From an uncultured Acidimicrobiales bacterium (GTDB taxonomy: Bacteria > Actinomycetota > Acidimicrobiia > Acidimicrobiales > Ilumatobacteraceae), in assembly GCA_963738325.1 (NCBI GenBank), contig CAVTWD010000015.1, positions 30,767 through 94,766 on the forward strand: a DNA stretch of 64,000 nucleotides. The letters run 5' to 3'. Numbering within the stretch: the stretch's first letter is position 1; the number at the start of each line of letters is the position of its first letter. Positions 1,210 through 62,308 of the stretch are shown here, piece by piece. Below the pieces are notes generated by a model. It had not been told where the DNA came from, searched no databases, and worked only from the letters and a program-made list of their open reading frames with translations. Both the position numbers and the translations under genes were made by a program.

Positions 1210-1788
1210 CTAATCCTGAAGGTCGTCGACCGTGCCGCCCGCGCGCCAGTATTCGCCGCCAGCCCGATCGAGGAAGCCCTCGTCGACGAGGTAGCGGCGC
1301 AGGGCGGCTGTGTCGGCATACCGGCGGCCGAGCACCAGGTTGACCATCGCCTCGCTGTAGCGATGCCCCGGCTCGAATTCCTGCGCCAGGAGGTCGAGCA
1401 CCACGAGCCGCTTCGAACGGGCGGCCGGGATGGCCGTGAGGCGGCCGTCGACGACGAAGGCCCGGAGCACCTTGGCCACCTCCGGAGGCCGATCGTCCTC
1501 GGCTCCCGGGTCGCGGCGCGAAGCGGCGGCCCGAGCGGCGGACTGGAACGCCGATGCCTGGATGACGAGCGCTCCCTCACCGTTCCGGACCACGAGCCCG
1601 GCGTCCACGAGACGGGCGAGGGCCTTACCCGACCTCGCCCCGTCGAGCCGCGCGTCGAGCGAGATCTGATTCGGTGTCGATGCCCCGAGCACCAACGCGG
1701 CGAACACTCGGCGCCGACCTTCGTCGGCCAGCAGCCCGGCGAGGGCGACAGCGTCGAGGCGCGGCTCGGGAGGCGCCGCGTCGGTCAA
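1210..1788 (-). CDS. DUF2087-like putative transcriptional regulator
   Basis: The C-terminal region (KVLRAFVVDGRLTAIPAARSKRLVVLDLLAQEFEPGHRYSEAMVNLVL) resembles DUF2087. A TTG start overlaps the stop of the upstream dehydrogenase (TTGA). Confidence 0.5.
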   Translation of the reverse strand: MTDAAPPEPRLDAVALAGLLADEGRRRVFAALVLGASTPNQISLDARLDGARSGKALARLVDAGLVVRNGEGALVIQASAFQSAARAAASRRDPGAEDDRPPEVAKVLRAFVVDGRLTAIPAARSKRLVVLDLLAQEFEPGHRYSEAMVNLVLGRRYADTAALRRYLVDEGFLDRAGGEYWRAGGTVDDLQD

Positions 1789-2711
1789 TAGCCGAGCTCG
1801 GGGTCGACCCGCCCGATGAGCTCCTCCCCCTGCCCGTACCGGCGCACATTGCTGGTGATGCGCTCGGCGAGGAGGGGGGCGGCCATCTCCGGCGTGTTGC
1901 CGACGTGCGGCGTGATGATGCAGTTCGGCAACGACCAAAGGGGATGGCCGTCGGGGAGGGGTTCGGGATCGGTGACGTCGAGGCCGGCGCCACCGATGGC
2001 GCCGTCCTTCAACACCTTCACGAGATCGTCGGTGACGATGTGGCGGCCACGGGCCACGTTGACGAGCCACGCGTGCGGCTCCATGAGCGCCAGTTCGCTG
2101 GCGCTCATGAGCCCCTCCGTGTCAGGAGTGAGGGCCAGAGCCAGGATGACGAGGTCGGCTCCGGGGAGCGCGTCGGGCAGCCGGTCGCTCCCGATGACGA
2201 CGTCGGCGCCTTCCATCTCCTGCACCCGGTTGCGCACGACCGTCACGTGAGCGCGGAAGGGCTGGAGCAGGCGCAGTAGCGACTCGGCGATGCCGCCCCC
2301 GCCGACGATGGTGACCCGGGCACCGAGCAGGTTCGTGCCCTGCGGTGGCTCCCACCGCTCGGCTCGGGTGTAGATGCCGAGCCCCCGCAAGCCGGCCAAC
2401 CCCAGCGCGAGGGCGAGCTCGGCGACCGGCTCGGCGTACACGCCCTTGCCACAGGTCCACAACCGCTCGTCGTCCACGAGGTGGGCGAAGGCCTCGACGC
2501 CCGCCCACGGCAGTTGAACCCACCGGACCTTCGGTGACGCCGCGAGCAGTTGCTCGAGTCCGGACACGTCGTGCGGGCTTCCCCACACCACGGCCTCGGC
2601 CTTGTCGACCCCCACGAGCTGCCCACCACCTTGGGTGACGGCCTCGGCCAGCCAGTCCGGAACCCCCTCGGGCGCCAGGGCGATGAGCGGGGCCTCGGGA
2701 CTTGGCGGCAT
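1785..2711 (-). CDS. D-isomer-specific 2-hydroxyacid dehydrogenase (NAD-binding)
   Basis: Carries the family signature NVARGxxVD...GLDVTxPEPLP...ITPHxG and is about 308 aa. Confidence 0.8.
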   Translation of the reverse strand: MPPSPEAPLIALAPEGVPDWLAEAVTQGGGQLVGVDKAEAVVWGSPHDVSGLEQLLAASPKVRWVQLPWAGVEAFAHLVDDERLWTCGKGVYAEPVAELALALGLAGLRGLGIYTRAERWEPPQGTNLLGARVTIVGGGGIAESLLRLLQPFRAHVTVVRNRVQEMEGADVVIGSDRLPDALPGADLVILALALTPDTEGLMSASELALMEPHAWLVNVARGRHIVTDDLVKVLKDGAIGGAGLDVTDPEPLPDGHPLWSLPNCIITPHVGNTPEMAAPLLAERITSNVRRYGQGEELIGRVDPELGY

Positions 2712-3051
2712 GCTGCGCCGACGTTAGCGAAATGACGGAGCCACGGAGATCCGGATCCGCGCGCCGGGCTAGCAGACCGCGCCCCCTCGAATCAGGCGGC
2801 GGCACACGTGCCTGCGAACTTCGCACGGAAAGCTGCCTGGGTCGGACGGCAGGGGTCGGATGGGAGGGATTCAGCCGATCTGCCGCTGACACGTGACGGG
2901 CACCGGGACCTGCCACCCGAACACCCCGATTTGGCGCAAGGGAATCCACGCCCAACCCGGCTGCGGGCAACGGGATCCCTTGCCTGAAGCGCCGGCGACG
3001 GCGAAGATGCGCAGGGCGGTGCCGACAACGGTTCGAAAGAAGGGAGCGCTG

Positions 3052-4482
3052 GTGACCACCACCTACCGGTCCAACTTCATCGGGGGAGCTTGGGTCGACA
3101 CGGTCGAGGGCCGCCAGGATGCGGTCGTCGCCCCCGCGACGGGCCAGCCGATCGCCGAGGTGGCCTCGTCCACGGCCGCCGACGTCGACGCCGCCGCGAC
3201 GGCTGCGGCCGCTGCGTATGACGAGTGGGCCTCCGCCTCCCCGGCCACGCGCTCGGCGGCTCTGCTCCGCTTCGCGGACGCCCTCGAATCCCACGGTGAC
3301 GAGCTCATCAAGCTCGAGAGCGAGAATGTCGGCAAGCCCATCACGTCGGTGCCGCCCGAGCTCGAGTTCCTCGTCGACAACCTGAGGTTCTTCGCCGCGG
3401 GTGCCCGGTGCATGACGACGCAAGCCCCCGGCGAGTACCTGAGCGGCTACACGTCCATCCTGCGTCGCGAGCCCCTCGGCGTCGCCGCGCTCATCGCGCC
3501 GTGGAACTACCCGATGATGATGGCGGGCTGGAAGGTGGGCCCGGCGCTGGCGGCCGGCAACACCGTCATCCTGAAGCCGTCAGAGCTCACGCCGCTCACC
3601 GCGCTGAAGATGGCCGAGATCGCCGCGGATGTGTTCCCGCCCGGGGTGTTCAACGTCGTGACCGGTGACGGCGAGCACTGCGGGGCGGCACTCGTGACCC
3701 ACCCGCTCGTGCGCATCGTGTCGCTCACCGGTGAGACCACCACCGGCAAGCTCATCATGAAGGCGGCCGCCGACTCGTTGAAGCGCGTCCACCTCGAGCT
3801 CGGCGGCAAGGCCCCTGTCATCGTCTTCGACGACGCCGACCTGGAGGCCACCGTGGCCGGCGTGCGCGCCTTCGGCTACTGGAACGCGGGACAGGACTGC
3901 ACGGCGGCCTGTCGCGTGATGGCCGGCCCCGGCATCCACGACGACCTCGTGGCCGGGTTGGCCGATGCCGCCAAGAGCCTCGTCATGGGCGACCCGGCCG
4001 ACGAGGCCACCGAGCTCGGGCCCGTGGTCTCGGCCGAGCAGCTCGACCGGGTGGCCGGCTTCGTGAGTCGAGCCGTCGCCGGCGGGGCGACGGCGGTGGC
4101 CGGTGGGTCGAAGCCCGAGAGCCCCGGCTTCTACTTCGAGCCGACGGTGATCGCGGGGGTCGGCCAGCAGGACGAGATCGTCCAACGGGAGGTGTTCGGC
4201 CCGGTTGTCACCGTGCAACGCTTCAGCGACGAGGCCGAAGCCATCGCCTGGGGCAACGGCGTCGACTACGGCCTCTCGGCCTCGGTGTGGACCAAGGACG
4301 TCGGGCGGGCCCTGCGCGTGTCCAACGCACTCCAGTTCGGCACGGTGTGGGTCAACGACCATGGGCCGCTCGTCTCCGAGATGCCACACGGCGGGTTCAA
4401 GCAGTCGGGCGTGGGCAAGGACATGTCCGTCTACGCCATCGAGGCGTACACCGAGCTCAAGCACGTGATGATCCGCACCTGA
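3052..4482 (+). CDS. NAD(P)-dependent aldehyde dehydrogenase
   Basis: Has the ELGGKAPVIVFDDAD motif and the catalytic Cys motif GQDCTAACR. GTG start after an AAGGGAG Shine-Dalgarno (SD). Confidence 0.85.
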   Translation: MTTTYRSNFIGGAWVDTVEGRQDAVVAPATGQPIAEVASSTAADVDAAATAAAAAYDEWASASPATRSAALLRFADALESHGDELIKLESENVGKPITSVPPELEFLVDNLRFFAAGARCMTTQAPGEYLSGYTSILRREPLGVAALIAPWNYPMMMAGWKVGPALAAGNTVILKPSELTPLTALKMAEIAADVFPPGVFNVVTGDGEHCGAALVTHPLVRIVSLTGETTTGKLIMKAAADSLKRVHLELGGKAPVIVFDDADLEATVAGVRAFGYWNAGQDCTAACRVMAGPGIHDDLVAGLADAAKSLVMGDPADEATELGPVVSAEQLDRVAGFVSRAVAGGATAVAGGSKPESPGFYFEPTVIAGVGQQDEIVQREVFGPVVTVQRFSDEAEAIAWGNGVDYGLSASVWTKDVGRALRVSNALQFGTVWVNDHGPLVSEMPHGGFKQSGVGKDMSVYAIEAYTELKHVMIRT

Positions 4483-4950
4483 TGGCCGTGACCAAACGGG
4501 CCGCGCCGGTTCTCGACGACACGGATCGGGCCATCATCGAACAGCTCCAGGGCGACGGCCGGCTCCCCTACACGCGCCTCGGCCACGCGGTGGGCCTCTC
4601 GGAAGCGGCCGTGCGCCAACGCGTGCAGCGCCTCATCGACGGGGGCGTGATGCAGGTGGTGGCCGTCACCGATCCCCTCTCGCTCGGCCTGCGACGCATG
4701 GCGATGATCGGCCTTCGCACCGAAGGCGACGTCGTCCGCGCTGGCGGACAAGGTCAGCGCGCTGGATGACGTCGACTACGTCGTCGTGACGGCAGGCTCC
4801 TTCGACATCCTCGTGGAGGTCGTCGTCGAGGACGACGCCGCGCTGCTCGAGCTGGTGGGACGGCTGCGCTCGGTCCCCGGGGTGCGCTCGACCGAGACGT
4901 TCATCTACCTCCGCCTCGTCAAGCAGACTTATGCATGGGGGGCTCACTGA
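4482..4950 (+). pseudogene. Lrp/AsnC-family regulator (AldR-like) with an internal +1 frameshift near 4730
   Basis: The N-terminal HTH part (MAVTKRAAPVLDDTDRAIIEQLQGDGRLPYTRLGHAVGLSEAAVRQRV) is in one frame. The C-terminal RAM domain (ALADKVSALDDVDYVVVTAGSFDILVEVVVEDD...) is in the +1 frame. Its start overlaps the ALDH stop (TGATG). Confidence 0.65.
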
Positions 4951-4967
4951 TGCATGAAGGGGGATCC

Positions 4968-6098
4968 GTGTTGACCGTCGGCGTGCCCGCGGAGATCAAG
5001 ACGGCCGAGGGTCGTGTCGCCCTCACCCCCGACGGAGTGCGCGAGCTCGACCGCCACGGTGTTCCCGTGTTCGTGCAAGCCGGCGCGGGGGCCGGCGCGT
5101 CGATCACAGATACCGAGTTCGCGGCCGCCGGCGCCACCATCGTTCCCACCGCGGCCGACGCCTGGAGCCAAGAGCTCGTCGTCAAGGTCAAGGAACCGCA
5201 GGCGAGCGAGTTCGGTTACCTGCGTGACGACCTCAACCTGTTCACCTACCTCCATCTGGCCGCATACCCGGAGGTGGCCAAGGCTCTGCTGTCGGCGCGC
5301 ACGACGGGGATCGCCTACGAGACGGTGCAGCTCGACTCGGGCGCGCTGCCCCTCCTCGCTCCGATGTCGGAGGTCGCAGGGCGCCTGGCGCCGCAAGCCG
5401 GCGCCTATTTCCTCGAGGCCCACAAGGGGGGGCGGGGCGTGCTGCTCGGGGGCGCTCCTGGCGTGCGCCCGGCTCGGGTGGTCGTGCTCGGTGCCGGCAA
5501 CGTCGGATGGAACGCGGCCTGGATCGCGGCAGGGATGGAAGCCGAGGTCCTCCTCCTCGACAAGAACCTCGACCGCTTGCGCTGGGTCGACCAGATCCAT
5601 CGCGGTCGGATCATGACGCTGGCCTCCAACCAGGGAGCGGTCGAGCGGGCCGTGGCCGAGGCCGATCTCGTCATCGGAGCCGTGCTGGTGGCCGGGAGCC
5701 GCGCTCCGGTCGTGGTGAGCGAACCGATGGTCGGCGCGATGAAGGCGGGCGCGGTGATCGTCGACGTCGCCGTCGACCAGGGTGGTTGCATCGAGACCAC
5801 GCGCGAGACCACGCACAAGGATCCGGTCTACGAGCGCCACGGGGTGCTGCACTACGCGGTGGGCAACATGCCGGGCGCAGTTCCCCACACCTCCACCTAC
5901 GCGCTCACGAACGCGACGCTGCCCTACATCCTCTCGGTCGCGCTGCGCGGTCCGGCCGGGGCGGCCGCGGAGGACCCCGCGCTCGGCCATGGGTTCAACA
6001 CGGTGGGAGGCGCGGTCACGAACGCGCCTGTGGCCGACTTCCTCGGGCTGCCCTACGTCGAGCCGGAGGCCGCGCTCAGCGACGTTCGCACCACCTGA
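4968..6098 (+). CDS. ald: alanine dehydrogenase
   Basis: Full-length match to the Ald family (VGVPAEIKTAEGRVALTPDGV...VVLGAGNVG...). GTG start after a GAAGGGGGA SD. Confidence 0.9.
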   Translation: MLTVGVPAEIKTAEGRVALTPDGVRELDRHGVPVFVQAGAGAGASITDTEFAAAGATIVPTAADAWSQELVVKVKEPQASEFGYLRDDLNLFTYLHLAAYPEVAKALLSARTTGIAYETVQLDSGALPLLAPMSEVAGRLAPQAGAYFLEAHKGGRGVLLGGAPGVRPARVVVLGAGNVGWNAAWIAAGMEAEVLLLDKNLDRLRWVDQIHRGRIMTLASNQGAVERAVAEADLVIGAVLVAGSRAPVVVSEPMVGAMKAGAVIVDVAVDQGGCIETTRETTHKDPVYERHGVLHYAVGNMPGAVPHTSTYALTNATLPYILSVALRGPAGAAAEDPALGHGFNTVGGAVTNAPVADFLGLPYVEPEAALSDVRTT

Positions 6099-7519
6099 CT
6101 GCGGGCGGCGCGGCGCCGGAGGATCCAGCACGTGGCTATGCCGGCGGCGACCAGCGCCAGCACGACGGGCGGGTAGAAGCCCACGTTCCGGGTGAGGCCA
6201 CCACCGTCGGGACGCGTCGTGGCCGCGGTGAGGATCGAACCCCACACCAGCAGGCTGGCCGCCGTTCCCGCCCAGGCCACGGCCAGCACCGGGAGCGCCC
6301 ACGCGAAGTACCACGCGTGCACCGACACCCCCAGGATGGCCAGTACGGCCAGCGCGCCGCCGAGGCCGACGAGCCCAAGACGCGGTGTGCGCGCCAGCAG
6401 TACCACGGCCAGCGCCACGCCCAGCGCCTGCAACCACGAGCGAACGGCGTCGAACGTGGTCGTGCGAGAGACCCCGAACGGCACCAGGAGCGGGCGGACG
6501 AGGAGGGCGATCACGGTGGAGAGCGACAAGAAGGTGGTGACGTCGGACCCGGCCGACAACCCGGACAGCCAGCCCCACGACTGACCCGCCGCGACCTGAA
6601 GCGCCTCCATCACGCCGAGGGCCACGAGGAGCAAGCCGGCGGTGCGGCCCACGCGCATGGCGAGCGACGCGGGCCGGCCGTTGTAGCGCCAGCCCACGTA
6701 GACGACGGCCGCGAGGGCGGGGAGCTTCACCGCGGCCCCGAGGGCTATCACGGCCGTCCCCCCCGCCGCGCCCCAGGGGTTCGGCCATCGCGCCGCCAAG
6801 GCGAGACCGGCCACCATCGCGCCGGCCATGAGCGCCTCGTTGTGCACGCCCCCGACGAGGTGGACGATCGTGATCGGTCCCGCCACGGCGAGGACGAGGG
6901 CATCGACGGCATTGGTCGCATGGGCCCGGGCGAGCACCACCACACCGAGGCCCATCAGCGCGACGCCTGCCACCATCCAGAGCCGCAGGCCGACCACGGT
7001 GCGGGTCACGTCGTGCGACGCGGCGGTGACGGCCGAGGCCGCCACTTCAGTCGACCCCGGCCCGTACGCGCTCACCACTCCCCGCCACACGGGATCGACG
7101 GCTACGAGGTAGGGCGAGCTTGCGCCGAGTGCGCTTGGCGCCACCCGGCCTGGATCCTCGCCTTGCACCGCGAGTGCGCCGTGGGCGGCATAACTGTAGG
7201 CATCGCGGCTGCCGAGGGGCGGGACGAGGAGAAGCGGTACGATCCACAGCGCCGTCACGGCGACGACGACTCCCGTCGTGAGGCGCCGACGCCGGGCGCG
7301 ACGATGCAGGTCGATCCACGCGACCGCCAGCGCCACGAATCCCACCACCCACGCGGCCCACGCCACGCCGCGGGGCACCGCCACGGGGGTCAACGACCAG
7401 CTGCCCGGGTGCCCACGAACCGGGAAGGCGCCGTCCCCAAGTGCAGCCAGCGCCACGAGCATGCTCCCGCCGAAGCCGACCAACGCGGGACGCGCGGCGG
7501 CAGATTCCGAGCGGGCCAT
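6053..7519 (-). CDS. polytopic membrane protein, GT87/DUF2029-like putative glycosyl(mannosyl)transferase
   Basis: About 488 aa with roughly 12 predicted TM helices, starting MARSESAAARPALVGF. The functional call rests on family resemblance only. Confidence 0.45.
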   Translation of the reverse strand: MARSESAAARPALVGFGGSMLVALAALGDGAFPVRGHPGSWSLTPVAVPRGVAWAAWVVGFVALAVAWIDLHRRARRRRLTTGVVVAVTALWIVPLLLVPPLGSRDAYSYAAHGALAVQGEDPGRVAPSALGASSPYLVAVDPVWRGVVSAYGPGSTEVAASAVTAASHDVTRTVVGLRLWMVAGVALMGLGVVVLARAHATNAVDALVLAVAGPITIVHLVGGVHNEALMAGAMVAGLALAARWPNPWGAAGGTAVIALGAAVKLPALAAVVYVGWRYNGRPASLAMRVGRTAGLLLVALGVMEALQVAAGQSWGWLSGLSAGSDVTTFLSLSTVIALLVRPLLVPFGVSRTTTFDAVRSWLQALGVALAVVLLARTPRLGLVGLGGALAVLAILGVSVHAWYFAWALPVLAVAWAGTAASLLVWGSILTAATTRPDGGGLTRNVGFYPPVVLALVAAGIATCWILRRRAARSQVVRTSLSAASGST

Positions 7520-7558
7520 GCCGGGATCGTAGGCTCGTCTTCCGCCACGACCATCGCG

Positions 7559-8872
7559 ATGACGCTCCACCGACGCAGTCCGGAACCGACCTTCGAGGAG
7601 AGCGAGGAAGCCCTCGCTGAGGGCGATGCCCTCTTCCCCCGGCGCCGGCCAGGGACGGTGCGCTCGGTCCTCGGCCACACCGCCTTCCGCCGCATGTGGG
7701 TTGGGTCGTTCGCGTCCAACGTCGGCACGTGGATGCAGACCGTCGTGCTCGGCGCCTATGCCTACGAGCTCACGGGGTCGAGCAGCTTCGTCGGTCTCGT
7801 GACCTTCGCCCAACTCGGGCCGCTCCTGCTGCTCGGGCTGTTCGGTGGAGTCATCGCCGACGTGTTCGATCGGCGCCGGCTGTTGATCGTGTTGCAGGCC
7901 GAGCAGCTCGTGTTCTCGCTCATCCTGGCGGCCGTCGTGGGTTTGAGCGACCATCCCTCGCAGCTCGCCTTGTTCGCGTGTGTCTTCGCGGTCGGGATCG
8001 GCAACGCGCTGAACCTGCCGGCGTGGAGCGCGGTGCTGCCCAACCTCGTGGGCAAGGAAGACCTGGCGGGAGCGATCTCGCTCAACTCGACGCAGGTGAA
8101 CATGAGCCGCGTTCTCGGCCCTGCCATCGCCGGTGTGGTCTACCCGATCGCCGGGCCGGCGTGGATCTTCGTGGTCAACGCCGCGACCTACCTCTTCGTG
8201 ATCGCCGCGCTCGTGTCGGTCCGCTTCCCCGACGTCGCCCGCGCCACCGGCAAGGTCTGGGAGAACGTCGTCGGCGGCTTCCGCATCTGCCGCGATGACC
8301 CTCTGGTGGGCCGGATCCTGATCACCCTGCCGATCTTCTCGTTCTTCTGCCTGCCGTTCCTCAGCTTGTTCCCCGCCATCGCCGCCACCGCGCTGGGGAT
8401 GGACACCAAGACCTTCGCCTACGGCGCGCTGTACGCGTGCTTCGGCGTGGGGGCGGCGGTCGGGGCGCTGTCGACTGGAACAGTGCTGGCCGCCGTCGAC
8501 AAGCGCCGGCTCACCCGCCTCGGCTTGATCGGCTTCGCCGTGAGCATCGGTGTCTTCGGGCTGCTGCGCCAACCCCTGCCCGCCTATCCCGCCGTGTTCG
8601 TGCTCGGCGCGTTCTACTTCGGGACGACGACGTCGATGATGACGGTGCTGCAGGAGGTGCTCGACGACGATGTGCGAGGGCGGGTGATGGCCCTCTGGTT
8701 CATGGGCTTCGGCGGGACCGTGCCGCTCGGTGGGCTCGCCTTCGGGCCGATCCTCGATGCCACCAACGCAAGCGTGATCCTGGGCGTCGCCGCCGTCGTC
8801 GCGCTGCTGCTGGCGTGGTGGTGTGACCTGCCCGCTCTCTCCACCAGCGTGGTACCCGGGCTCGCCACCTGA
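7559..8872 (+). CDS. MFS transporter (DHA/EntS-like)
   Basis: About 12 TM helices with MFS-like motifs. Divergent from the GT87-like gene. Confidence 0.8.
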   Translation: MTLHRRSPEPTFEESEEALAEGDALFPRRRPGTVRSVLGHTAFRRMWVGSFASNVGTWMQTVVLGAYAYELTGSSSFVGLVTFAQLGPLLLLGLFGGVIADVFDRRRLLIVLQAEQLVFSLILAAVVGLSDHPSQLALFACVFAVGIGNALNLPAWSAVLPNLVGKEDLAGAISLNSTQVNMSRVLGPAIAGVVYPIAGPAWIFVVNAATYLFVIAALVSVRFPDVARATGKVWENVVGGFRICRDDPLVGRILITLPIFSFFCLPFLSLFPAIAATALGMDTKTFAYGALYACFGVGAAVGALSTGTVLAAVDKRRLTRLGLIGFAVSIGVFGLLRQPLPAYPAVFVLGAFYFGTTTSMMTVLQEVLDDDVRGRVMALWFMGFGGTVPLGGLAFGPILDATNASVILGVAAVVALLLAWWCDLPALSTSVVPGLAT

Positions 8873-8938
8873 TGCTGCGCGCCTTCGCCCCTGGCGTGTT
8901 CGGCGACCAGCAAGGCGACGCCCCCGCGCGTCCTCGCG

Positions 8939-9598
8939 TTGCCCGGCTGGATGCGGCCCCGGCACGACTTCGCCACGGCACTCGCGGGGTTGGACGCCGT
9001 CCTCCTCGATCTCCCGGGCTTCGGCGGCGCCTCGCCGGTGCCCGCCGAACCCGCCGGAGCCGCTGGCTACGCCGAGCTGGTGGCCCCTGCCCTCGAGGCC
9101 TGCGCCCCCGACGTCGTCGTGATCGGCCACTCCTTCGGCGGCCGGGTGGCGGTCAACCTCGCGGCGACCCATCGCGTGGGCGCGCTGGTGCTCACGGGCA
9201 CTCCCCGCTTGGTGCGACCATCAGTGACATCGAAACCCGCCATGTCATTCCGTGTCGTCCGTTGGCTCCAGCGGCGAGGGCTCGTCAGCGACGAACGCAT
9301 GGAGGCCCTACGCCGCCAGCGCGGCTCGGAGGACTACCGGAACGCGAGCGGCGTCATGCGTGACGTGCTCGTGCGGGTGGTGAACGAGGACTACGAGGCG
9401 CTGCTGCCGCGCGTCCAGGTGCCCGTGGAGCTGGTCTGGGGCGACGACGACACCGCCGCTCCCCTGGCGCAGGCCGAGCGGGCCCAAGCTCTGTTCGGCG
9501 GGCCGGCCAAGGTCACCGTGGTACCCGGTGCCGGGCACCTCACCCCCCTCACGATCCCCGACGTGCTGCGGGCCGCGGTGGAGGCGCACCTGCAATGA
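8939..9598 (+). CDS. alpha/beta-fold hydrolase; the N-terminus may extend to ATG 8872 through a +1 frameshift
   Basis: Has the HGW-like LPGWMRPRHDF motif and the nucleophile elbow GHSFGG. An ATG at 8872 overlaps the MFS stop (TGATG) and joins the hydrolase frame if one G is skipped near 8925. The stop overlaps the next start (ATGA). Confidence 0.65.
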   Translation: MPGWMRPRHDFATALAGLDAVLLDLPGFGGASPVPAEPAGAAGYAELVAPALEACAPDVVVIGHSFGGRVAVNLAATHRVGALVLTGTPRLVRPSVTSKPAMSFRVVRWLQRRGLVSDERMEALRRQRGSEDYRNASGVMRDVLVRVVNEDYEALLPRVQVPVELVWGDDDTAAPLAQAERAQALFGGPAKVTVVPGAGHLTPLTIPDVLRAAVEAHLQ

Positions 9599-11106
9599 CG
9601 TGGATCGTGGCCGGCGCCTGCCTCGTCGCGGTGCTCGCCCAAGGCCCCCGCTGGCTGCGCATCGCCCAGCGCGAGCACTACCTGGCCAGCTCGGTCAGCC
9701 GGTTCGCGCTGCGCTGGTGGCGGTCGAGGCCGGGTAATGTCGCTCTGTTCGTCGTCGCCGTCGCCACCGCGGCCGCCGCGTTCGCCCTGCCCGAGCTCGG
9801 CCTCGTCGCCGCGCTCATCACGGTGCTCGCGCCGATCGGCCTCGGCTTGCGCGGTCGAACGTCGAAGCTCGTGTGGACCCGCCGCCTGAAGACGCTCGCC
9901 GCCATCGCGACCGTGATCGACGCAGCCGTGATCCTCGGCCTCCGCGTGGTGGCGCCGGCCTGGTGCGTGCTGCAGCCCCTCGTCGTCGACCTCAGCCTCT
10001 GGATCGCCGGCCCGTTCGAGCGCCTCGCCGCCCGCCGCTACGTCCGCTCGGCGACCGAGAAGCTCCGCGCCGTGCACCCGACCACGGTGGCCATCACGGG
10101 CTCCTACGGCAAGACGACGACGAAGGGGTACCTGCGGCACCTGGCCAGTGGGTCGCGGTCCGTGCTCGCCAGCCCGGCCAGCTTCAACAACACGGGCGGG
10201 CTCTCGCGCACGCTGAACGAGCACCTTGCCCCCGGCACCGAGGTCTTCGTCGCGGAGATGGGGACGTACGGCCCGGGCGAGATCGCGTCGATGGTCTCGT
10301 GGGTCAAGCCGGACGTCGCCGCCATCGTGAACGTCGGCCCCGTCCACCTCGAGCGGATGCGCTCGCTCGACGGCATCGTGGCGGCGAAGTCCGAGATCTT
10401 CGCCACGGCCCGAGCCGCGGTGCTGAACGTCGACGCGCACGGCCTGGCCACCGTCGCTGATCGTCTCGAGGCCGAGGGGCGCCGCGTGATCCGCGTGTCC
10501 ACCGGCGACGTGGGCGCCGACGTCTGCGTGCGTCCCGCGGCCGACGATCCCACCGCCCTCGAGGTCTACGTGCACGGCGAGCACTGCCACCGCATCACGG
10601 GCAGCTCCGCTCATCCGTCCAACGTCGCCGCCGCGGTGGGCCTCGTGCTGGCGTTGGACATCCCCGTCGAGCGCGTGCTCGGCCGGCTCGACACCTTGCC
10701 CGAGAGCGATCACCGCCAGCAGGTGGCACGCAGCGCGGCAGGGGTGACCGTGATCGACAACACGTTCTCGTCGAATCCCGCGAGCGCGGAGGCGTCGCTG
10801 GCTCTGCTCGGCCGCTTCGGTGGCCCGCACGCTCGCCGTGCCGTCGTCACTCCGGGCATGGTCGAGCTCGGCCCGGTCGCCCGCGAGGAGAACCGTCGCT
10901 TCGGTCAGGCCGCGGTGGCCGTTGCCTCGGATCTCCTGATCGTGGGCGTCACCAATCGCTTCGCCTTGCGCGCCGGTGCCTCCGGCTCGGCCGCGACCGT
11001 TCGGCTCGTCAGGACGCGAGACGAGGCAGTGGACTGGGTGCGGGCCAACCTCCGCGATGGCGACGTGGTGCTGTACGAGAATGACCTCCCCGACCATTAC
11101 CCGTGA
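9595..11106 (+). CDS. Mur ligase family protein (MurF-like) with an N-terminal 3-4 helix membrane anchor
   Basis: Contains the P-loop ITGSYGKTTTK and Mur-ligase central and C-terminal regions. The first 130 aa or so are hydrophobic. Coupled to the upstream and downstream genes. Confidence 0.7.
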   Translation: MTWIVAGACLVAVLAQGPRWLRIAQREHYLASSVSRFALRWWRSRPGNVALFVVAVATAAAAFALPELGLVAALITVLAPIGLGLRGRTSKLVWTRRLKTLAAIATVIDAAVILGLRVVAPAWCVLQPLVVDLSLWIAGPFERLAARRYVRSATEKLRAVHPTTVAITGSYGKTTTKGYLRHLASGSRSVLASPASFNNTGGLSRTLNEHLAPGTEVFVAEMGTYGPGEIASMVSWVKPDVAAIVNVGPVHLERMRSLDGIVAAKSEIFATARAAVLNVDAHGLATVADRLEAEGRRVIRVSTGDVGADVCVRPAADDPTALEVYVHGEHCHRITGSSAHPSNVAAAVGLVLALDIPVERVLGRLDTLPESDHRQQVARSAAGVTVIDNTFSSNPASAEASLALLGRFGGPHARRAVVTPGMVELGPVAREENRRFGQAAVAVASDLLIVGVTNRFALRAGASGSAATVRLVRTRDEAVDWVRANLRDGDVVLYENDLPDHYP

Positions 11107-12230
11107 GAGGTGCCAGCGTGGATCGACCGGCAGTCGTTTTCGGCGGGCCGTCCCCCGAACACGACATCAGCGTGCTCACCGGCCTCCAAGCGGCGCGCTG
11201 CCTGGCCGACGCCGACCAGGACCCCCTGGCCGTCTACTGGTCGAAGGCGGGATCGTTCCACGCCGTGCCCGCCGCCCTCGAAGCCAGGGACTTCGTCCAC
11301 GGCGTGCCGCCCAAGGCGGACGGTCTGGAGCTCGTGGCGCAACCCGGCGGAGGATTCGTCGGTGAGCGCGGGCGGTTCGGCAAGCGCGCTCCCCTCGACA
11401 TCGGCGCCGTCGTGAACTGCTGCCACGGCGGCCCAGGCGAGGACGGGACGCTCCAGGCCGCCCTCGATCTGGCCGGCGTGCCCTATACGGGCCCCGGTGC
11501 CGCCGGTGCCGCGCTGGGCATGGACAAGCTGGCCTTCGGCGGGGTCATGGCCGCCGCCGAGATTGCCTGCCTGCCGAGGTTCGCGTTGAGCGAGGACGGC
11601 CCGCAGCCCCCGTTCACCGGGCCGTACATCGTGAAGCCCCGCTTCGGCGGCTCGTCGATCGGCATAGAGATCATCGACGATCTCGCCACCGCACGCGCGT
11701 TGGCGGCCTCCTCGCCCCACTTCCGTGACGGCGCGGTGCTCGAGCCGTACCGGCCAGATGCCGTCGATCTCAACATTTCCGTGCGCACCTGGCCGTCGCT
11801 GACGCTCTCGGCCATCGAGCGGCCGATCCGCCAGGAGGCCTCGGGGCGCATCTACACCTACGCGGAGAAGTACCTCGGTGGCGGCGAGGGTCTGTCGTCG
11901 GCCCCGCGCGAACTGCCCGCCGACATCCCCGACGATCTTGCGGAACGGGTGCGGCGGGTGGCGGTGGCCGTCGCGGCGGTGGCTCTGGTGCGGGGCGCGC
12001 CGCGCATCGACTTCCTCTGGGACGGCCCCGAGCTGTGGGTGAACGAGATCAACACCATCCCGGGCGCGATGGGTTGGTACTTGTGGCACGCCAGCGGGGT
12101 GAGCTTCGCCCAGCTGCTGGCCGACTTGTTGGACGAGGCCAGGCGCGGCCCCGTACGCACCCGCACCACCGAGGGGGCCGATGGCACGGCGTTGCGCGCC
12201 GCTGGCTCGATCGCCGGCAAGCTCGCTTAG
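11103..12230 (+). CDS. ddl: D-alanine--D-alanine ligase
   Basis: ATP-grasp Ddl signature (AVVFGGPSPEHDISVLTG...EINTIPG). The start overlaps the MurF-like stop (GTGA). An alternative GTG lies at 11118. Confidence 0.85.
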   Translation: MRGASVDRPAVVFGGPSPEHDISVLTGLQAARCLADADQDPLAVYWSKAGSFHAVPAALEARDFVHGVPPKADGLELVAQPGGGFVGERGRFGKRAPLDIGAVVNCCHGGPGEDGTLQAALDLAGVPYTGPGAAGAALGMDKLAFGGVMAAAEIACLPRFALSEDGPQPPFTGPYIVKPRFGGSSIGIEIIDDLATARALAASSPHFRDGAVLEPYRPDAVDLNISVRTWPSLTLSAIERPIRQEASGRIYTYAEKYLGGGEGLSSAPRELPADIPDDLAERVRRVAVAVAAVALVRGAPRIDFLWDGPELWVNEINTIPGAMGWYLWHASGVSFAQLLADLLDEARRGPVRTRTTEGADGTALRAAGSIAGKLA

Positions 12231-12239
12231 ACTTTAGGG

Positions 12240-13225
12240 CTTGAGCGGATAGGCGTTTCAGTTGGGGCTCCAGCGGTTTCGCCAGTCGATGAGCTTTGCG
12301 GTGAGTAGTACGGCGACCGCCAGGGTGAATTGGGCGAGTCGGTGGAGTGTTCGCCGGTCGGTGTTGCGGCGGAGTTGACCGAAGTTCGACAGCCACGAGT
12401 TTGTCCGCTCGTTCGGCCAGCGCAGCCCCATGGGAATGTTCGTGGTGCCCTCGCCGGCGTTGCGTTGGCGCTTGGTGGCGAGGCTCGCATCGTCAATCTG
12501 GCGCTCGGCGAGGCGTTGGCGAGTGACGCCACTGTCGTAGCCGCGGTCGAGCCACAACGTGTCGATCTCGGTGAGCAGACAGCGCCCGGCGGCGTCATCG
12601 AGGGTGGGTGCGAGCAGCACCGAGTCGTTGCGGTTGGCACCGTCGATCGTCCAGCCGATGGGCACCCCATGCCGTTCGGAGGCCACGGACCACTTCCAGC
12701 CCAACTTCCCACGATCGGTGGGGTTCGGGCCGGTCCCCTCACCACCGTAGGGAGCGTTGTGCAGCGACCCGTCGAGACTGACCTCGGACAGGTCCAGCCC
12801 GATGATCCGGTCGTAGTCGCCGATCGCTTCCTCTGCGATGGCGGCGAAGACCCCGGCGGCGATCCACTCGTCGCGGCGGTCGCGCACGGTCGTGTCGGAG
12901 ACCTCGCTGCCACACAGCCGCTCGGCGTCTTCCCACGAGCATCCCCTCGCCCACCGCACGAGCATCACCCCAAAGCACGCCCGGTCCGACGCCCGATGGC
13001 GGTGACAGCCGAGCGGATGGGTCACCTGCCGGACTGGGATCAGCGGCTCGACTGCTCGCCAGATCACCTCCACAACTTCGGGATCAAGTGCGCGCATAAT
13101 GGTGAAGACCTCCACTCGGTCGTTGTTCGTGTTCAGCAACCCCGATTCTCTCGGGGCCACCACAACGACCGGTGGATGGTCACCTCGTCGCGAACTACCT
13201 GGTCAAAGGCCATTTCGTCTACCCG
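12240..13225. mobile_element. IS5-family (IS427/IS1031-group-like) insertion sequence; boundaries approximate
   Basis: Single DDE transposase ORF. Imperfect terminal inverted repeats GGCGTTTCAGTTGG (12252) and CCTGGTCAAAGGCC (13198). CTTAG is present on both flanks (12226 and about 13232). Inserted immediately after the ddl stop. Confidence 0.5.
12258..13097 (-). CDS. IS5-family DDE transposase
   Basis: Shows GWKWSVASERHGVPIGW...ANRNDS and an N-terminal HTH (MRALDPEVVEVIWRAVEPLIP). The ORF could extend to 13163. Confidence 0.8.
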   Translation of the reverse strand: MRALDPEVVEVIWRAVEPLIPVRQVTHPLGCHRHRASDRACFGVMLVRWARGCSWEDAERLCGSEVSDTTVRDRRDEWIAAGVFAAIAEEAIGDYDRIIGLDLSEVSLDGSLHNAPYGGEGTGPNPTDRGKLGWKWSVASERHGVPIGWTIDGANRNDSVLLAPTLDDAAGRCLLTEIDTLWLDRGYDSGVTRQRLAERQIDDASLATKRQRNAGEGTTNIPMGLRWPNERTNSWLSNFGQLRRNTDRRTLHRLAQFTLAVAVLLTAKLIDWRNRWSPN

Positions 13226-13322
13226 CGCCGCCTCTTAGGACAAGTCCTGTTACCGTTGCTCAGAGACACGGCATCGTCGGAGTCGGGGCACGCGGGCGAG
13301 GCGGGGAGGCGGGGAGGCGGGG

Positions 13323-14612
13323 ATGTATAGGGCCACTGTGATTGGCATCGTCGCGACCATGACGGCGCTGGCACTGGCAGGATGCGGGAGCAAGGCAGCC
13401 ACCAGCGCGCCAGCAGCCACCAGCGCGCCAGCAGCCAGCACGACAACGGCACCTGCCAGCACGACAACGGCACCTGCCAGCACGACTGCAAGGTCTGCGG
13501 CCGCGCCATCCACGACCACGATGCCCCCGGTCATGAGCGCGTCCTCGGTGGCGCAGTTCGTGACGACCTTCTACAACCAGTATCTGGCCTGCCAGGGAAC
13601 GAACGCTGTTACCTGTTCCAGCAGCGTCGTGAACAAGTACGGCACGCCGAAACTCGACTCGTATTACACACCCGCAGCGGGCTACGAATATGACAGCGAC
13701 CCCATCCTGTGCGCCCAGGACTCCCCGACAGGGGTCCAGGTGTCAGGCGTGACGACGACGCCGAACACCGCTTCGGGAACGGTGAACGAGGAGGGCTTCG
13801 GCTCGGCGAACACGACCACTTTCGTAGTCGTCAACCAATCGGGCACGTTGAAAATCGACACCATCACCTGCAATCCGCCGTTGATGCCAGACAAGCAGCT
13901 CACGGGTGGGGGCGGTACCGGATCCACGGGCGGCTCGGCAACAAGCCTCGACGGCACGTACACGATCTCCCTGCCGCCGGGCGACGACAGCTGCGGCTCC
14001 CCGTCCTTGAGCGCGGAGACCCTCACCGTCAGCGGCACGACGGCGAGCATCACTGCGGTCGGCGGGCAAACCCCATTTCACGGCACAGCAACCACCGCAG
14101 GATCGACGTTCTCGATGCACATCACGAACGGCATCACCGGCCCCGGTGCCATCGTCATCGACCTCACCGGCAGCATCGAGCCGAACGGCGCTCTGTCGGG
14201 TCAGAGTGTGAACGGCGGCGTCTACCCGGGTGGCACGAACGGCTTCGGCTGTAGCTTTCCATTCACCGCCACCCGCACCTCGGCGAAAGCGGGACCACCG
14301 GCGAGCAGCGCGCCCGTCACCACTCCCTCAGCCGGTAGCGCCGCCCCCTGCACCCGAGCCGCGATCACGGCCGCCGCCCGGGCCGCCGCCGGAGCGGACT
14401 TCGACGGCCTGGCCGGCGGCACGGCGGCCTTCGGCTGCTCGGGCCGGTTCGCCTACACGTTCGCCACCGTCGGGTCGGGTAACACCGAGGTCGACGTCAC
14501 GATGCTGTTCATGGCGACCAACGGCACCTGGCAGTCCGCCGACCGGGGCATCTACTGCCAAGACGGCTCGGTACCTCGGGAGATCTATCGGCCCGCGTGC
14601 GAAACCCAATGA
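13323..14612 (+). CDS. lipoprotein of unknown function with an N-terminal Ala/Thr/Ser-Pro low-complexity linker
   Basis: Signal peptide with lipobox LALAGC, tandem ATSAPAA/STTTAPA repeats, and a Cys-containing C-terminal domain. A GGCGGGGA x3 repeat sits immediately upstream of the start. Confidence 0.7.
   Translation: MYRATVIGIVATMTALALAGCGSKAATSAPAATSAPAASTTTAPASTTTAPASTTARSAAAPSTTTMPPVMSASSVAQFVTTFYNQYLACQGTNAVTCSSSVVNKYGTPKLDSYYTPAAGYEYDSDPILCAQDSPTGVQVSGVTTTPNTASGTVNEEGFGSANTTTFVVVNQSGTLKIDTITCNPPLMPDKQLTGGGGTGSTGGSATSLDGTYTISLPPGDDSCGSPSLSAETLTVSGTTASITAVGGQTPFHGTATTAGSTFSMHITNGITGPGAIVIDLTGSIEPNGALSGQSVNGGVYPGGTNGFGCSFPFTATRTSAKAGPPASSAPVTTPSAGSAAPCTRAAITAAARAAAGADFDGLAGGTAAFGCSGRFAYTFATVGSGNTEVDVTMLFMATNGTWQSADRGIYCQDGSVPREIYRPACETQ
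13399..13500. repeat. short tandem direct repeats inside the lipoprotein linker (2 x about 21 bp and 2 x about 21 bp)
   Basis: ccaccagcgcgccagcagc occurs twice and cagcacgacaacggcacctgc occurs twice. Confidence 0.7.
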
Positions 14613-15193: not shown

Positions 15194-15799
15194 TCACGGG
15201 CGCAGGGCGGCGTGCACGTACACGAAGAGCTCGCGCCGCAGGCGGCGCAGCGACGCGATTGACGCGTCGAGCCCGACGACTCGTTGCGCTTCCAGCTCCG
15301 TGGCGGCCCCGACCACCGTGGCATAGAGCAGCAGCACCGTGAGGCGGGGATCCGCCTGGCGCACCGTGCCGGCCGCCATCTCGTCGTCGAGGAACGCCCC
15401 CGCCCGGTCCACCAGCGGTTGCAGCCCCTGCTCCAACCGGCCGGCCGGTCCCGCCCCCAGCCGGTTCACCTCGCGCAGCAGCCCGAGTACCGCAGGCCGG
15501 CGCACCCCGAAGCGGAAGACGGCGCCGAGCACCAGCTCGACCCGGGCCAGGCCGTCGCCACCACGGGCCAGAGCGCCCTCTATCGCCTCCGCCAACGCCG
15601 CGGCCACGTGGTCGATCACCGCGTCGAGCAAACTCTCCTTCGAGTCGAACCAGTAGAGGATGGTCTGCTTCGTGATACCGAGCTCGCCCGCCAACGCGTC
15701 GAGCGACGTGGCTTCGTAGCCGCGCGTACCGAAAGCGGAGAGAGCGGCGTCGACGATCCGCCGGGCGGTCTCGGACGGTCGATGGTCTGCCCGGGGCAC
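15194..15799 (-). CDS. TetR/AcrR-family transcriptional regulator
   Basis: N-terminal HTH (ARRIVDAALSAFGTRGYEATSLDALAGELGITKQTILYWFDSKESLL). Divergent from the FAR gene. Confidence 0.85.
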   Translation of the reverse strand: MPRADHRPSETARRIVDAALSAFGTRGYEATSLDALAGELGITKQTILYWFDSKESLLDAVIDHVAAALAEAIEGALARGGDGLARVELVLGAVFRFGVRRPAVLGLLREVNRLGAGPAGRLEQGLQPLVDRAGAFLDDEMAAGTVRQADPRLTVLLLYATVVGAATELEAQRVVGLDASIASLRRLRRELFVYVHAALRP

Positions 15800-15800
15800 T

Positions 15801-15812
15801 TACCATATGGTA
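15801..15812. promoter_or_regulatory. perfect 12-bp palindrome TACCATATGGTA between the divergent TetR and FAR starts (candidate TetR operator)
   Basis: The palindrome lies in the 24-bp divergent intergenic gap. Confidence 0.5.
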
Positions 15813-15823
15813 GACAATCGAGC

Positions 15824-18173
15824 GTGATCGCCGAGACCCTCGCCGGTTCGCGCATCGCCATCACCGGAGGGACGGGGTTCGTGGGGACGGCGCTCGTCGA
15901 GCGACTGCTCCGCGACGTGCCGCGTTGCGAGGTCGTGCTCCTCGTACGCGCCGGCCGCCGCTCCAGCGCCGCGCAGCGGGTGCAGCGCGAGATCCTGAAG
16001 AACGACGCCTTCGACCGGCTGCGTCGGGAGGTCGGCCGGGACGGCTTCGCGGCCCTCGCCGAGCGCCAGGTGCACGTGATCGCGGGCGACGTCGGCACCG
16101 ACGGCCTAGGCCTCGACGACGCCGATCGCGCCATGCTGGCCAGCTGCAGCCGCGTCATCCACTCGGCCGCCACGGTCGCGTTCGACGCGCCCCTCGACGG
16201 TGCCGTCGAGGTCAACCTGCTCGGACCGTCACGCCTCGCGCTCCTCCTCCACGAGCTCGGCGTCAGCCCCCACCTCATCTCGGTGTCGACGTGCTACGTC
16301 GCCGGCAACCGTCGAGGGAAGGCTCCCGAGTCACCGGTGAGTGACGGCCCATTCGATCTGGGAGTGGACTGGCGCAAGGAGGTCGACGCGGCGCGGCGGG
16401 CACGGGCCGACACCGAGGCCGAGAGCCGCCAGCCCGAACGCCTGGCCGAGCTCCACAAGCGGGCGCGGGCCGAGCTGGGCGCGGCCGGTTCGCCGGCGCT
16501 CGCGGCCAAGACCGAGCAGCTGCGCGGGCGCTGGGTGGCCGATCGAATGGTCGAGCTCGGCCGAGCCCGAGCCGTCAGCCTGGGTTGGCCCGATGCCTAC
16601 GCGTACACGAAAGCCCTCGGCGAAGGGGCGCTGCTCGAGAACGCCGGGCCGGTGCCCGTCACGATCGTGCGGCCGTCGATCATCGAGTCATCGCTGGCCG
16701 AGCCGCGACCGGGCTGGATCCGCGGCTTCCGCATGGCCGAGCCGATCATCGTCTCCTATGCCCGAGGCCTGCTGAAGCAGTTCCCCGGCGTGCCGGAAGG
16801 AATCGTCGACGTGATCCCCGTCGACCTCGTCGTCGGCGCCATCTGCGCGGCGGCTGCGCTGGGCCCGGAGTCGGCACCCCCGATCGTGCAGGTGGCATCC
16901 GGCTCCCGCAACCCGCTGAAGTACCGCTTCCTCGTCGACACCGTGCGCCACTGGTTCGGTGAGCATCCGGTGTACGACAGCATCGGTCAGCCCATCGCGG
17001 TCGCCGACTTCGACTACTCCGCTCGCCACGAGGTCAAGGGCCAGCTCGAGCGGGCCAAGGGAATGATGTCGCGCGCCGAGAAGGTCCTCCACGCGTTGCC
17101 GTTGCGGGGCACGCAGGCCGCCTTCGCGGCCCGACTCGAGGAGCGGCGCAGCGAGGTGGAGCGGGCCCTGTCCTACGTCGAGCTGTACGGCAGCTACGCG
17201 GAGTGCGAGGCCGTCTACTCCGTCGACCAGCTGCTCGCGATGCAAGACGAGCTCAGTGCCGAGGATCTCGTTGCGTTCTCCTTCGACCCCGCCGCCATCG
17301 ACTGGGCGCACTACATCCGCGACGTCCACCTCCCGAGCGTCATCGAGCACGCCCGCGTGAAGACAACACCCACGCGCGGCCGCGCCGACCATCGCCGCGA
17401 TCGGCTGCGGGCCCAGGTCCTGTCACCGGAGCGTCACGTGGCCGCCTTCGACCTCGAGAACACGTTGATCGCCTCGAACGTCGTCGAGAGCTACTCGTGG
17501 TTGGCCACCCGACGCCTCCCCACGCAGGACCGGGTCCGCCTTGCCCTCAAGACGCTGGCCGAGGCCCCCGGGCTGCTCGCCTTGGACCGCCGCGACCGCG
17601 GCGACTTCCTCCGGGCGTTCTACCGACGCTACGAGGGCGCCCCGGTCGCCCAGATCGACGAGGACGCCACCGAGCTGTTCAGCCAACTCATCCTGGCCAA
17701 GAGCTTCCCCGCCGCCATCCGTCGAGTGCGCGAGCATCGCGCCGCCGGGCATCGCACCGTGTTGATCACCGGCGCGCTCGACTTCGCCGTCCGTTCCCTC
17801 CAACCGCTGTTCGACGAGATCATCGCCGCGCGACCTGAGCGTCCGTGACGACGGGACCTACTCGGGCGAGCTGACCGACGTGTCCCCCACGGGCGAGACG
17901 CGTGCGCAACTCCTCGCCGAGTACTGCGAAGCCGAGGGCCTGCGCTTGGACGAGTCGGTCGCGTATGCCGATTCGACGTCCGATCTGCCCCTGCTCGAGG
18001 CCGTGGGCTTTCCGGTGGCCGTGAACCCCGAGACCCGCTTGGCCACCCTTGCCCGGAAGCGGGGGTGGCTCGTGGAGGACTGGCGGAAGCCGCCCGGCTC
18101 CTCAGGGCCCCGGTTGCCGATCGGACCGGCCTGGCGCGCGCCGCGGGTCACGGAGCTGCGGGGCGCCCGATGA
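15824..18173 (+). pseudogene. fatty acyl-CoA reductase (thioester-reductase/NAD-binding) fused to a C-terminal HAD-IB hydrolase domain; -1 frameshift near 17830
   Basis: N-terminal region has ITGGTGFVG...YAYTK, an FAR/TE-reductase fold. The C-terminal part has HAD motif FDLENTLI and ...ADSTSDLPLLEAVGFPVAVNP. The HAD tail continues in another frame (17880..18173). Confidence 0.7.
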
Positions 18174-19355: not shown

Positions 19356-19581
19356 GCCGGGCGCGCGTCACGGCCCAGCGTGGGGCAGGGGCCCCACGCT
19401 CGGGAGGAGGCTGGGGTTGGGGCCCCAGCCGGGCCGACCAACAAGGAGCGAAACCGATGAGCCGGGCGCGCGTCACGGCCCGGCGTGGGGCAGGGGCCCC
19501 ACGCTCGGGAGGAGGCTGGGGTGGGGGCCCCAGCCGGGCCGACCAACACGGAGCGAAACCGATGAAGGAGGGCGCGCGCTG
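19338..19581. repeat. 105-bp tandem direct repeat (2 full units plus a partial third), each with an internal 9-bp-stem hairpin
   Basis: Each unit begins aaggagcgaaaccgATGagccgggcgcgcgtcacggcc... and is repeated at 19338, 19443 and 19548 (period 105). The hairpin is agcgtgggg-cagggg-ccccacgct. Confidence 0.85.
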
Positions 19582-19582
19582 A
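19352..19582 (+). CDS. upstream ORF created by the tandem repeat (35-aa peptide repeated twice, then MKEGAR), coupled to the downstream gene
   Basis: Each repeat carries an AAGGAG SD 7 nt before an ATG. The period of 105 is 35 codons, so the frame is kept. The stop overlaps the LarA-like ATG (TGATG). Confidence 0.25.
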   Translation: MSRARVTAQRGAGAPRSGGGWGWGPSRADQQGAKPMSRARVTARRGAGAPRSGGGWGGGPSRADQHGAKPMKEGAR

Positions 19583-21168: not shown

Positions 21169-21178
21169 GGATGCCGCC

Positions 21179-62292: not shown

Positions 62293-62308
62293 CTTCGCAC
62301 GCTACCGA

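Follow-up and report, generated by a model that had tools for sequence, protein, structure and literature searches.

In this work we analyzed a 64,000 nucleotide stretch of DNA (hereafter the window; GC content about 70%) from contig CAVTWD010000015.1 of an uncultured Acidimicrobiales bacterium, and report that it carries a conserved unit of three genes which code for an alpha/beta hydrolase (ABH), a membrane-embedded Mur ligase, and a D-Ala-D-Ala-type ligase (Ddl). By sequence and structural model the catalytic domains of the Mur ligase belong to the lineage of MurF, while its N-terminus is formed by a predicted domain of five transmembrane helices which replaces the acceptor-binding domain 1 of MurF. 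The pairing of the MurF-like ligase with Ddl is non-random and conserved across the class Acidimicrobiia. We propose, with a probability of about one half, that the dipeptide made by Ddl is attached by the ligase, on the inner side of the membrane, to the stem peptide of a peptidoglycan precursor. A preliminary description of this DNA had already pointed to a membrane-embedded MurF-like ligase coupled to Ddl outside the division and cell wall (dcw) cluster; this arrangement is real and is shared throughout the class, but the conserved unit is composed of three genes and not of the four that had been grouped together.

MurF was the best match of the ligase in every search (TIGR01143; PDB 4CVK, 4QF5, 3ZL8, and 1GG4). 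NCBIfam models gave 176 bits for murF, 56 for murD, 36 for murC, and 20 for murE, Pfam detected Mur_ligase_M (1.4e-25) and Mur_ligase_C (3.5e-10), and a profile of the ligase family scored 106-138 bits with MurF, 57 with MurE, and 52 with MurD when searched against the PDB sequences. The top 10 Foldseek matches were all MurF, with a target-normalised TM-score of at most 0.67 over about 368 columns. When MurT and CapB were set against MurF in these profile and structure comparisons, as had been suggested from the outset, MurT reached about 35 bits and no CapB family match was obtained in the NCBIfam, Pfam or PDB searches. When a plasmid collection was searched, all matches were canonical murF paralogues, 28-31% identical, from Streptomyces and genera like it. 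The middle and C-terminal domains have the fold of MurF and share with it the P-loop, the NN motif, the His/Lys residues (carbamyl-Lys position), and the motifs DxxYNxNP and GxMxELG. In the window ligase the P-loop reads ITGSYGKTTTK, and across 110 sequences the middle-domain residues G169, K173, and T174 of this loop, together with E221, H251, and K265, show no or almost no variation; further conserved features are NN198-199, R374, DNTFSSNP, and TPGMVELG, where DNTFSSNP/DDTYNSNP and TPGMVELG align with DDSYNANP and GDMGELG of PaMurF. Since the alignment to TIGR01143 starts only at model position 64, corresponding to residue 152 of the ligase, domain 1 of MurF is missing; the alignments of the family to PDB sequences begin at about profile position 155-170. 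The ligase thus differs from MurF in having a 162-residue domain of five helices with conserved cytoplasmic loops in place of domain 1, as well as in its family-specific C-terminus (LYENDLPDHYP), in a score below the model cutoff, in its location away from dcw, and in the ABH gene which is always found upstream.

The hydrophobic helices of the N-terminal domain span approximately residues 1-18, 47-63, 67-80, 100-117, and 121-138 and are followed by a linker helix that extends to residue 160. The hydrophobic N-terminus ahead of ITGSYGKTTTK had been noticed before and taken for an anchor of three to four helices; there are in fact five, and instead of a simple anchor they form a conserved domain. 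AlphaFold2 modelled this domain with a predicted local distance difference test (pLDDT) score of 94.9, both within the full-length protein and alone. Loop 19-46 (RWLRxAQREHY..RFAxRWW) and loop 81-99 (GLxLRGRTSxLxWTRRL) contain on average 5.7 and 5.6 Lys plus Arg residues, and the two three-residue turns contain none, a charge pattern which according to the positive-inside rule places both loops and the catalytic domains in the cytoplasm. These Arg/Trp-rich loops are the best-conserved segments of the entire ligase; the frequency of the top residue is 0.76 and 0.81 in the loops, 0.66-0.69 in the catalytic domains, and 0.38-0.55 in the transmembrane helices. The possibility of a mis-called start, raised together with the anchor, can be set aside, as the alignment of over 110 homologues begins at residue 1. 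Taken together, the confident model and the conservation of the loops argue for a new functional domain, neither a passive anchor nor an artefact of the start codon. The five-helix domain was not found in any other protein architecture.

The distribution of the unit was addressed by scanning one genome per species with the ligase family. The best 80 of at least 586 species gave the set of related loci, which were viewed over 10 kb on either side of the ligase, and the deep relatives L082 to L085 were added. A protein search returned more than 4800 ligase homologues, the top 120 of which are all about 505 aa long, span 96-100% of the query, and derive from metagenome-assembled genomes of Acidimicrobiia; the best 80 loci are all from Acidimicrobiia or obviously mis-binned. 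Wherever the sequence of a locus reaches far enough, ABH is encoded directly 5' of the ligase; Ddl is encoded directly 3' of the ligase in most of the best 80 loci. The stop codon of ABH and the start codon of the ligase overlap by 4 nt in 12 of the 23 loci where this could be measured and lie within 11 nt in the others. Comparison of the loci for co-occurrence of the membrane-anchored ligase with Ddl, a check that the preliminary description had proposed, showed that the pair recurs in Acidimicrobiia and brought out ABH as the obligate upstream partner of the ligase. In L082 the trio is kept at an N-domain identity of 28%, directly after infC-rpmI-rplT-pheS-pheT, and the PheS of this locus is 52-58% identical to that of named Acidimicrobiales; L084 and L085 also retain the trio. 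The lack of mraY, murG, and ftsW neighbours first noted at this locus holds more widely; no dcw gene, including these three, occurs anywhere in the 64-kb window, the three genes are absent from the 80 related loci, and the views of the 85 loci contain no dcw gene at all. No other gene family is consistently linked among the related loci, and this includes any glycosyltransferase, flippase, polymerase or lipid-synthesis gene. Divergently upstream of ABH, a gene for a GAF-HisKA-HATPase sensor kinase was observed in 48 of the 80 loci (e.g., L073:7364-9160). Apparent fusions of ABH to the ligase (P0150, P0175, P0215, and P0219) were rejected as frameshifted, Arg-rich translation artefacts of low-quality assemblies.

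The prediction that a full D-Ala-D-Ala ligase follows the Mur ligase was borne out by the presence of both Ddl Pfam domains. Its best solved relative is the Ddl of Mycobacterium tuberculosis (PDB 3LWB; 1.8e-30, 109.6 bits), the actinobacterial DdlA (Rv2981c), with which it has in common the catalytic residues and a gene neighbourhood with recG, rsmD, coaD, ppk, and nudix genes; it differs in being only 109.6 bits similar, in a deletion of four residues in the loop for the D-Ala2 carboxylate, in a C-terminal tail, about 30 residues long, that is conserved, and in a score below the TIGR01205 cutoff. Equivalents of E15, S150, K215, Y216, R255, D257, E270, and N272 are kept in 60-61 of 61 Ddl family members, and with the catalytic residues intact, Lys-Tyr included, Ddl should make a D-Ala-D-X dipeptide and not a depsipeptide. 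The tail (GADGTALRxAGSIAxKLG), present in all aligned family members and absent from Escherichia coli DdlB, may be a docking or membrane-binding element; as it is intact in the window, the gene has not been truncated by the insertion sequence that follows it. Downstream of Ddl in related loci are genes for RecG (24), RsmD (16), PlsX (15), CoaD (12), and YceD (12), and in L001 genes for a polyphosphate kinase (PPK) and a NUDIX protein lie upstream; in the sublineage of the window itself other genes follow Ddl, such as those for a TetR regulator and a fatty-acyl reductase (FAR)-like protein. This neighbourhood resembles the ddlA region of M. tuberculosis (Rv2965c-Rv2985), where Rv2981c lies together with ppk1, mutT1, recG, Rv2966c, and coaD. 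On this resemblance, what had been called a second Ddl is probably the housekeeping copy and the positional orthologue of ddlA. A ddl gene outside dcw is normal for Actinobacteria, and Firmicutes have ddl-murF operons; the ligase described here likewise adjoins ddl. A second, canonical Ddl that seemed to lie next to the trio in L083 was discarded. Positions 1-1200 of L083 have 78% GC and encode a Ddl of the actinomycete type that is truncated and scores 220 bits with M. tuberculosis Ddl, and the body of the locus at 1400-7200 has 52-58% GC and carries the ABH-ligase-Ddl trio; because of the jump in GC and the truncation of this Ddl at the junction, L083 was treated as a chimeric assembly and not as a locus with two Ddls.

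In the window the ABH gene is frameshifted. Codons 1 to about 17 are read from ATG 8872 and the remainder in the frame of 8921-9598, and when translation is continued in the frame of the ATG it turns to Arg-rich nonsense after about 18 codons. The ATG agrees with the N-terminus of homologous hydrolases (xLRAFADGxLFG...PPRVLALHGW), as the window reads MLRAFAPGVFGDQQGDA in frame 1, continued by PPRVLALPGW in frame 2; the first canonical start in the frame of the ABH body is TTG 8939. The extra base in the GCCCCCG run would have arisen either by recent mutation or through an error in assembling the homopolymer. It breaks the ABH gene and thus interrupts the proposed chain of four overlapping genes at this point; the stop/start overlaps on which that proposal was built are all present (TGATG at 8870-8874, ATGA at 9595-9598, and GTGA at 11103-11106). 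The first of them contains the stop codon of a transporter of the major facilitator superfamily (MFS), which is not a conserved partner. The rest of the ABH open reading frame is intact, and the motifs of the catalytic triad, GHSFGG, DDD (Asp), and GAGH (His), can be seen by eye. Profile searches for the function of ABH gave only generic esterase, KAI2-like, and PcaD-like matches, all far below their cutoffs.

Table 1. Positions of the three-gene unit, its domains, and adjacent features in the window.
Feature	Position	Strand	Basis	Remark
Alpha/beta hydrolase (ABH)	8872-9598	+	Pfam Abhydrolase_6 and Abhydrolase_1	Frameshifted in the window
Apparent 1-nt insertion in ABH	8920-8926	+	Run GCCCCCG	
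Membrane-embedded MurF-type ATP-dependent amide ligase	9595-11106	+	Pfam Mur_ligase_M and Mur_ligase_C	503 aa
N-terminal domain of five transmembrane helices	9595-10080	+		Residues 1-162
MurF-like middle and C-terminal domains	10081-11103	+		Residues ~163-370 and ~371-503
D-Ala-D-Ala-type ligase (Ddl), ATP-grasp	11103-12230	+	Pfam Dala_Dala_lig_N and Dala_Dala_lig_C	375 aa
Family-specific C-terminal tail of Ddl	12138-12227	+	Family alignment	
MFS_3 transporter	7559-8872	+	Pfam	Local neighbour, outside the conserved module
MptB-like GT-C mannosyltransferase	6053-7531	-	NCBIfam	Divergent, polytopic; local neighbour outside the module
IS5-family insertion sequence	12231-13234	-	Transposase at 12258-13163	Directly after the Ddl stop codon, outside the module

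From the architecture, topology, conservation, and lineage of the domains described above we infer how the unit may work. Ddl, given its intact catalytic residues, would supply D-Ala-D-Ala. The ATP-binding middle domain and the dipeptide-binding C-terminal domain of the ligase face the cytoplasm, and the conserved Arg/Trp-rich loops would most likely form the acceptor-binding site, in the role of domain 1, and fix the peptidoglycan precursor by its (pyro)phosphate-bearing end at the surface of the membrane. The ligase would activate the carboxylate of the stem peptide with ATP and then attach the Ddl dipeptide to it. The acceptor would be either UDP-N-acetylmuramic acid (MurNAc)-tripeptide, which would be passed on to MraY, or a lipid-linked tripeptide, and the translationally coupled ABH may act as an esterase or peptidase in the preparation or proofreading of the substrate. 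That no polymer or lipid genes are linked to the unit, and that its contexts are those of housekeeping genes, argues for an ordinary peptidoglycan intermediate as the acceptor; with no other gene consistently linked, the acceptor would have to be supplied by housekeeping metabolism. Action at the membrane, which had been suggested before, is plausible; the export step that had been added to it finds no comparative support, because the MFS gene is not conserved beside ABH (it is absent in L005 and L019). A precedent for a lipid-linked acceptor is offered by MurT/GatD, the lipid II isoglutamine synthase, in which a Mur-family ligase without UDP-binding domain likewise has an overlapping, obligate partner gene; such an acceptor is therefore conceivable here too. 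MurT/GatD acts at the membrane on a lipid-linked precursor, and membrane action is predicted for the present ligase as well. MurT itself is soluble, with a DUF1727 C-terminal domain, a Cys4 ribbon, and a glutaminase as partner, whereas our ligase lacks DUF1727, has Mur_ligase_C instead, and is partnered by ABH.

Several observations weigh against a role of the ligase as a MurF that uses the product of Ddl on a peptidoglycan precursor. Its score does not reach the TIGR01143 cutoff of 288.6 bits, the domain that binds UDP in canonical MurF is gone, and its identity to actinobacterial MurFs is 28-30%, no closer than to proteobacterial ones. Ddl in turn scores 162.3 bits on TIGR01205, below the cutoff of 245.65, and has lost four residues at the Ser281/Leu282 loop of E. 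coli DdlB (Tyr-Leu aligns there, in a loop whose alignment is uncertain), so that its second substrate might differ. The linkage of ABH to the ligase is tighter than that of the ligase to Ddl; in three loci of one sponge-symbiont clade (L066, L070, and L074) the ABH-ligase pair occurs with no Ddl within 10 kb. It is above all this very tight coupling that raises the suspicion that the enzyme does more than an ordinary MurF, and canonical MurF is not known to require a hydrolase partner. Whether the ligase is the sole MurF of Acidimicrobiia or a paralogue beside a canonical MurF in dcw is finely balanced, and we lean slightly towards the paralogue. A sole enzyme would be in keeping with conservation across the class, with the housekeeping operons in which the gene is found, and with its link to ddl; the missing domain 1, the obligate hydrolase, the sub-threshold scores, and the lack of any special likeness to actinobacterial MurFs speak for a paralogue. 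That Acidimicrobiia have no canonical MurF at all, with the loops binding undecaprenyl-pyrophosphate, D-Ala-D-Ala being added to the lipid-linked tripeptide after MraY, and ABH being a new obligatory component of the pathway, is the boldest form of our proposal and would seem to us unlikely.

A paralogue could also have left peptidoglycan altogether. In this case the canonical murF would be retained in dcw, and ABH and the membrane ligase would form a separate two-component enzyme that attaches D-Ala-D-Ala, borrowed from the housekeeping Ddl, or another amine to a carboxylate of a membrane lipid, a lipoamino acid or a secondary polymer. The loss of the UDP-binding domain, the new membrane domain, the altered C-terminus LYENDLPDHYP, and the score below the MurF cutoff are all in line with this, as are the hydrolase partner with its 4-nt overlaps and the persistence of the ABH-ligase pair where Ddl is elsewhere; Mur-family ligases without domain 1 that work on non-UDP substrates are known in MurT and CapB/PgsB. 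On the other hand the middle and C-terminal domains have kept their MurF-specific motifs, the module sits in housekeeping operons, for instance after pheST, and no glycosyltransferase, flippase, polymerase or lipid-synthesis gene accompanies it consistently, and for these reasons we regard a non-peptidoglycan acceptor as possible but doubtful. Membrane-anchored ligases lacking domain 1 are also found in CapB/PgsB, and a membrane polymerase of this kind making a poly-amino-acid is suggested by the PgsB-like succession of an N-terminal membrane segment and the Mur middle and C-terminal domains. However, PgsB, which has a single transmembrane helix, polymerises glutamate together with PgsC and PgsA, whereas our ligase shows no specific similarity to it, has MurF as its first match in all sequence, profile, and structure searches, is without capC- or capA-like neighbours, and is partnered by Ddl; this is the least credible of the alternatives.

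The four-gene envelope module of the preliminary description, in which MFS transporter, hydrolase, ligase, and a second Ddl would make a dipeptide, ligate it at the membrane, and trim or export the product, drew on the adjacency of the genes on one strand and on their overlapping stop and start codons in the window. No MFS gene lies beside ABH in any of the 80 related loci, however, and in the closest relatives (L005 and L019) the order is aldehyde dehydrogenase-Lrp-alanine dehydrogenase-ABH-ligase-Ddl with neither the MFS gene nor the glycosyltransferase between alanine dehydrogenase and ABH, which in L005 are 131 nt apart. From this absence we take the MFS and MptB-like genes of the window to be a lineage-specific insertion of 2.8 kb. 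As Ddl moreover occupies the conserved ddlA position, and the ABH frame that would couple to MFS is broken in the window, such a module is very improbable. Just as improbable is a pathway resembling glycopeptide resistance, in which a divergent Ddl would make D-Ala-D-Lac, D-Ala-D-Ser or a different dipeptide, for installation by a MurF-like ligase dedicated to this task. The altered Ddl loop at the DdlB Ser281/Leu282 position would fit it, as would the gene at L083:6507-7193, 1.6 kb downstream from the trio, which encodes a D-Ala-D-Ala dipeptidase (Peptidase_M15) and was seen in this single distant lineage, and murF paralogues do go with van clusters in other Actinobacteria (PMC8698665). Against it stand the invariant equivalent of Tyr216, which marks the dipeptide type, the absence of vanH, vanX, and vanRS from the window and the 80 loci, the lack of van-like genes in 216 surveyed Acidimicrobiales assemblies (PMC8698665), and the core, class-wide and not accessory nature of the module.

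The MFS gene, the MptB-like gene, and the IS5 element next to the unit are, judged by gene context, unrelated local neighbours. The MFS gene was correctly recognized as a transporter gene of this superfamily (Pfam MFS_3). The divergent gene described as a GT87/DUF2029-like glycosyltransferase is indeed divergent and polytopic, but no Pfam match supports GT87/DUF2029; it scores 104.6 bits on NF038066 (MptB), above the cutoff of 40, and is therefore MptB-type, with 145.8 bits on TIGR03459 (MptA) falling below the cutoff of 439.4. An IS5 element had been placed exactly at the 3' end of the operon, and the element does start right after the Ddl stop codon, with a transposase scoring 129 bits on NF033580 (IS5 family; cutoff 110); both this element and the glycosyltransferase, which had been counted with the module, are incidental to it. 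TTAG is found on both flanks of the approximately 1-kb element (12227-12230 and 13235-13238) and fits a 4-bp YTAR target duplication, and DNA similarity between the window and L005 stops at about position 12226. No terminal inverted repeats of the element could be clearly defined, and no second copy was found within the window. Upstream (2893-6098) lie genes for an aldehyde dehydrogenase, an Lrp/AsnC regulator, and an L-alanine dehydrogenase; in L005 and L019 the alanine dehydrogenase gene directly adjoins ABH. Beyond the element, a short G-rich tandem repeat (GGCGGGGAGG; 13290-13320) is situated just 5' of a gene (13323-14612) for a 429-aa Ala/Thr/Ser-rich protein with a signal-like N-terminus and repeated APASTTT units, which belongs to no Pfam family. 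The region 15194-22201 is syntenic with L001:14264-19792 downstream of Ddl, sharing genes for a TetR regulator, a fusion of NAD_binding_4 (fatty-acyl reductase-like) with HAD, a Lar_N-domain protein, and an acyltransferase. The other genes of the window are metabolic (aldehyde dehydrogenase, alanine dehydrogenase, glutamate synthase, enzymes of the tricarboxylic acid cycle, and others), with the large subunit of glutamate synthase at 25628-30277; an EncFtn-like (encapsulated ferritin) gene at 32794-33219, a LigD primase-polymerase domain gene at 61282-62301, and one tRNA at 443-515 were also observed. Rfam, promoter, and terminator scans gave nothing relevant.

MurF and Ddl are near-universal enzymes and antibiotic targets, and the soluble three-domain architecture of MurF has been treated as invariant. 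The ligase variant described here appears to be undescribed; a full-text literature search brought up no account of a membrane-anchored MurF and none of murF in Acidimicrobiia, and a paper on MurE-MurF makes no mention of such an enzyme. Proteins of this family are at present annotated automatically as "MurF" or "Mur ligase family protein", and our analysis corrects this annotation. Members of an entire class of Actinomycetota, abundant in soil and marine habitats and as associates of sponges, have an enzyme of the MurF lineage that possesses a new membrane domain and whose partner is always a hydrolase. If this enzyme is the sole MurF, the final precursor step would be membrane-bound in Acidimicrobiia, possibly acting on a lipid-linked substrate, and should D-Ala-D-Ala be added after MraY the textbook order of the pathway would change. 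If it is instead a paralogue, the class would have a conserved and so far unrecognized use for D-Ala-D-Ala at the membrane.

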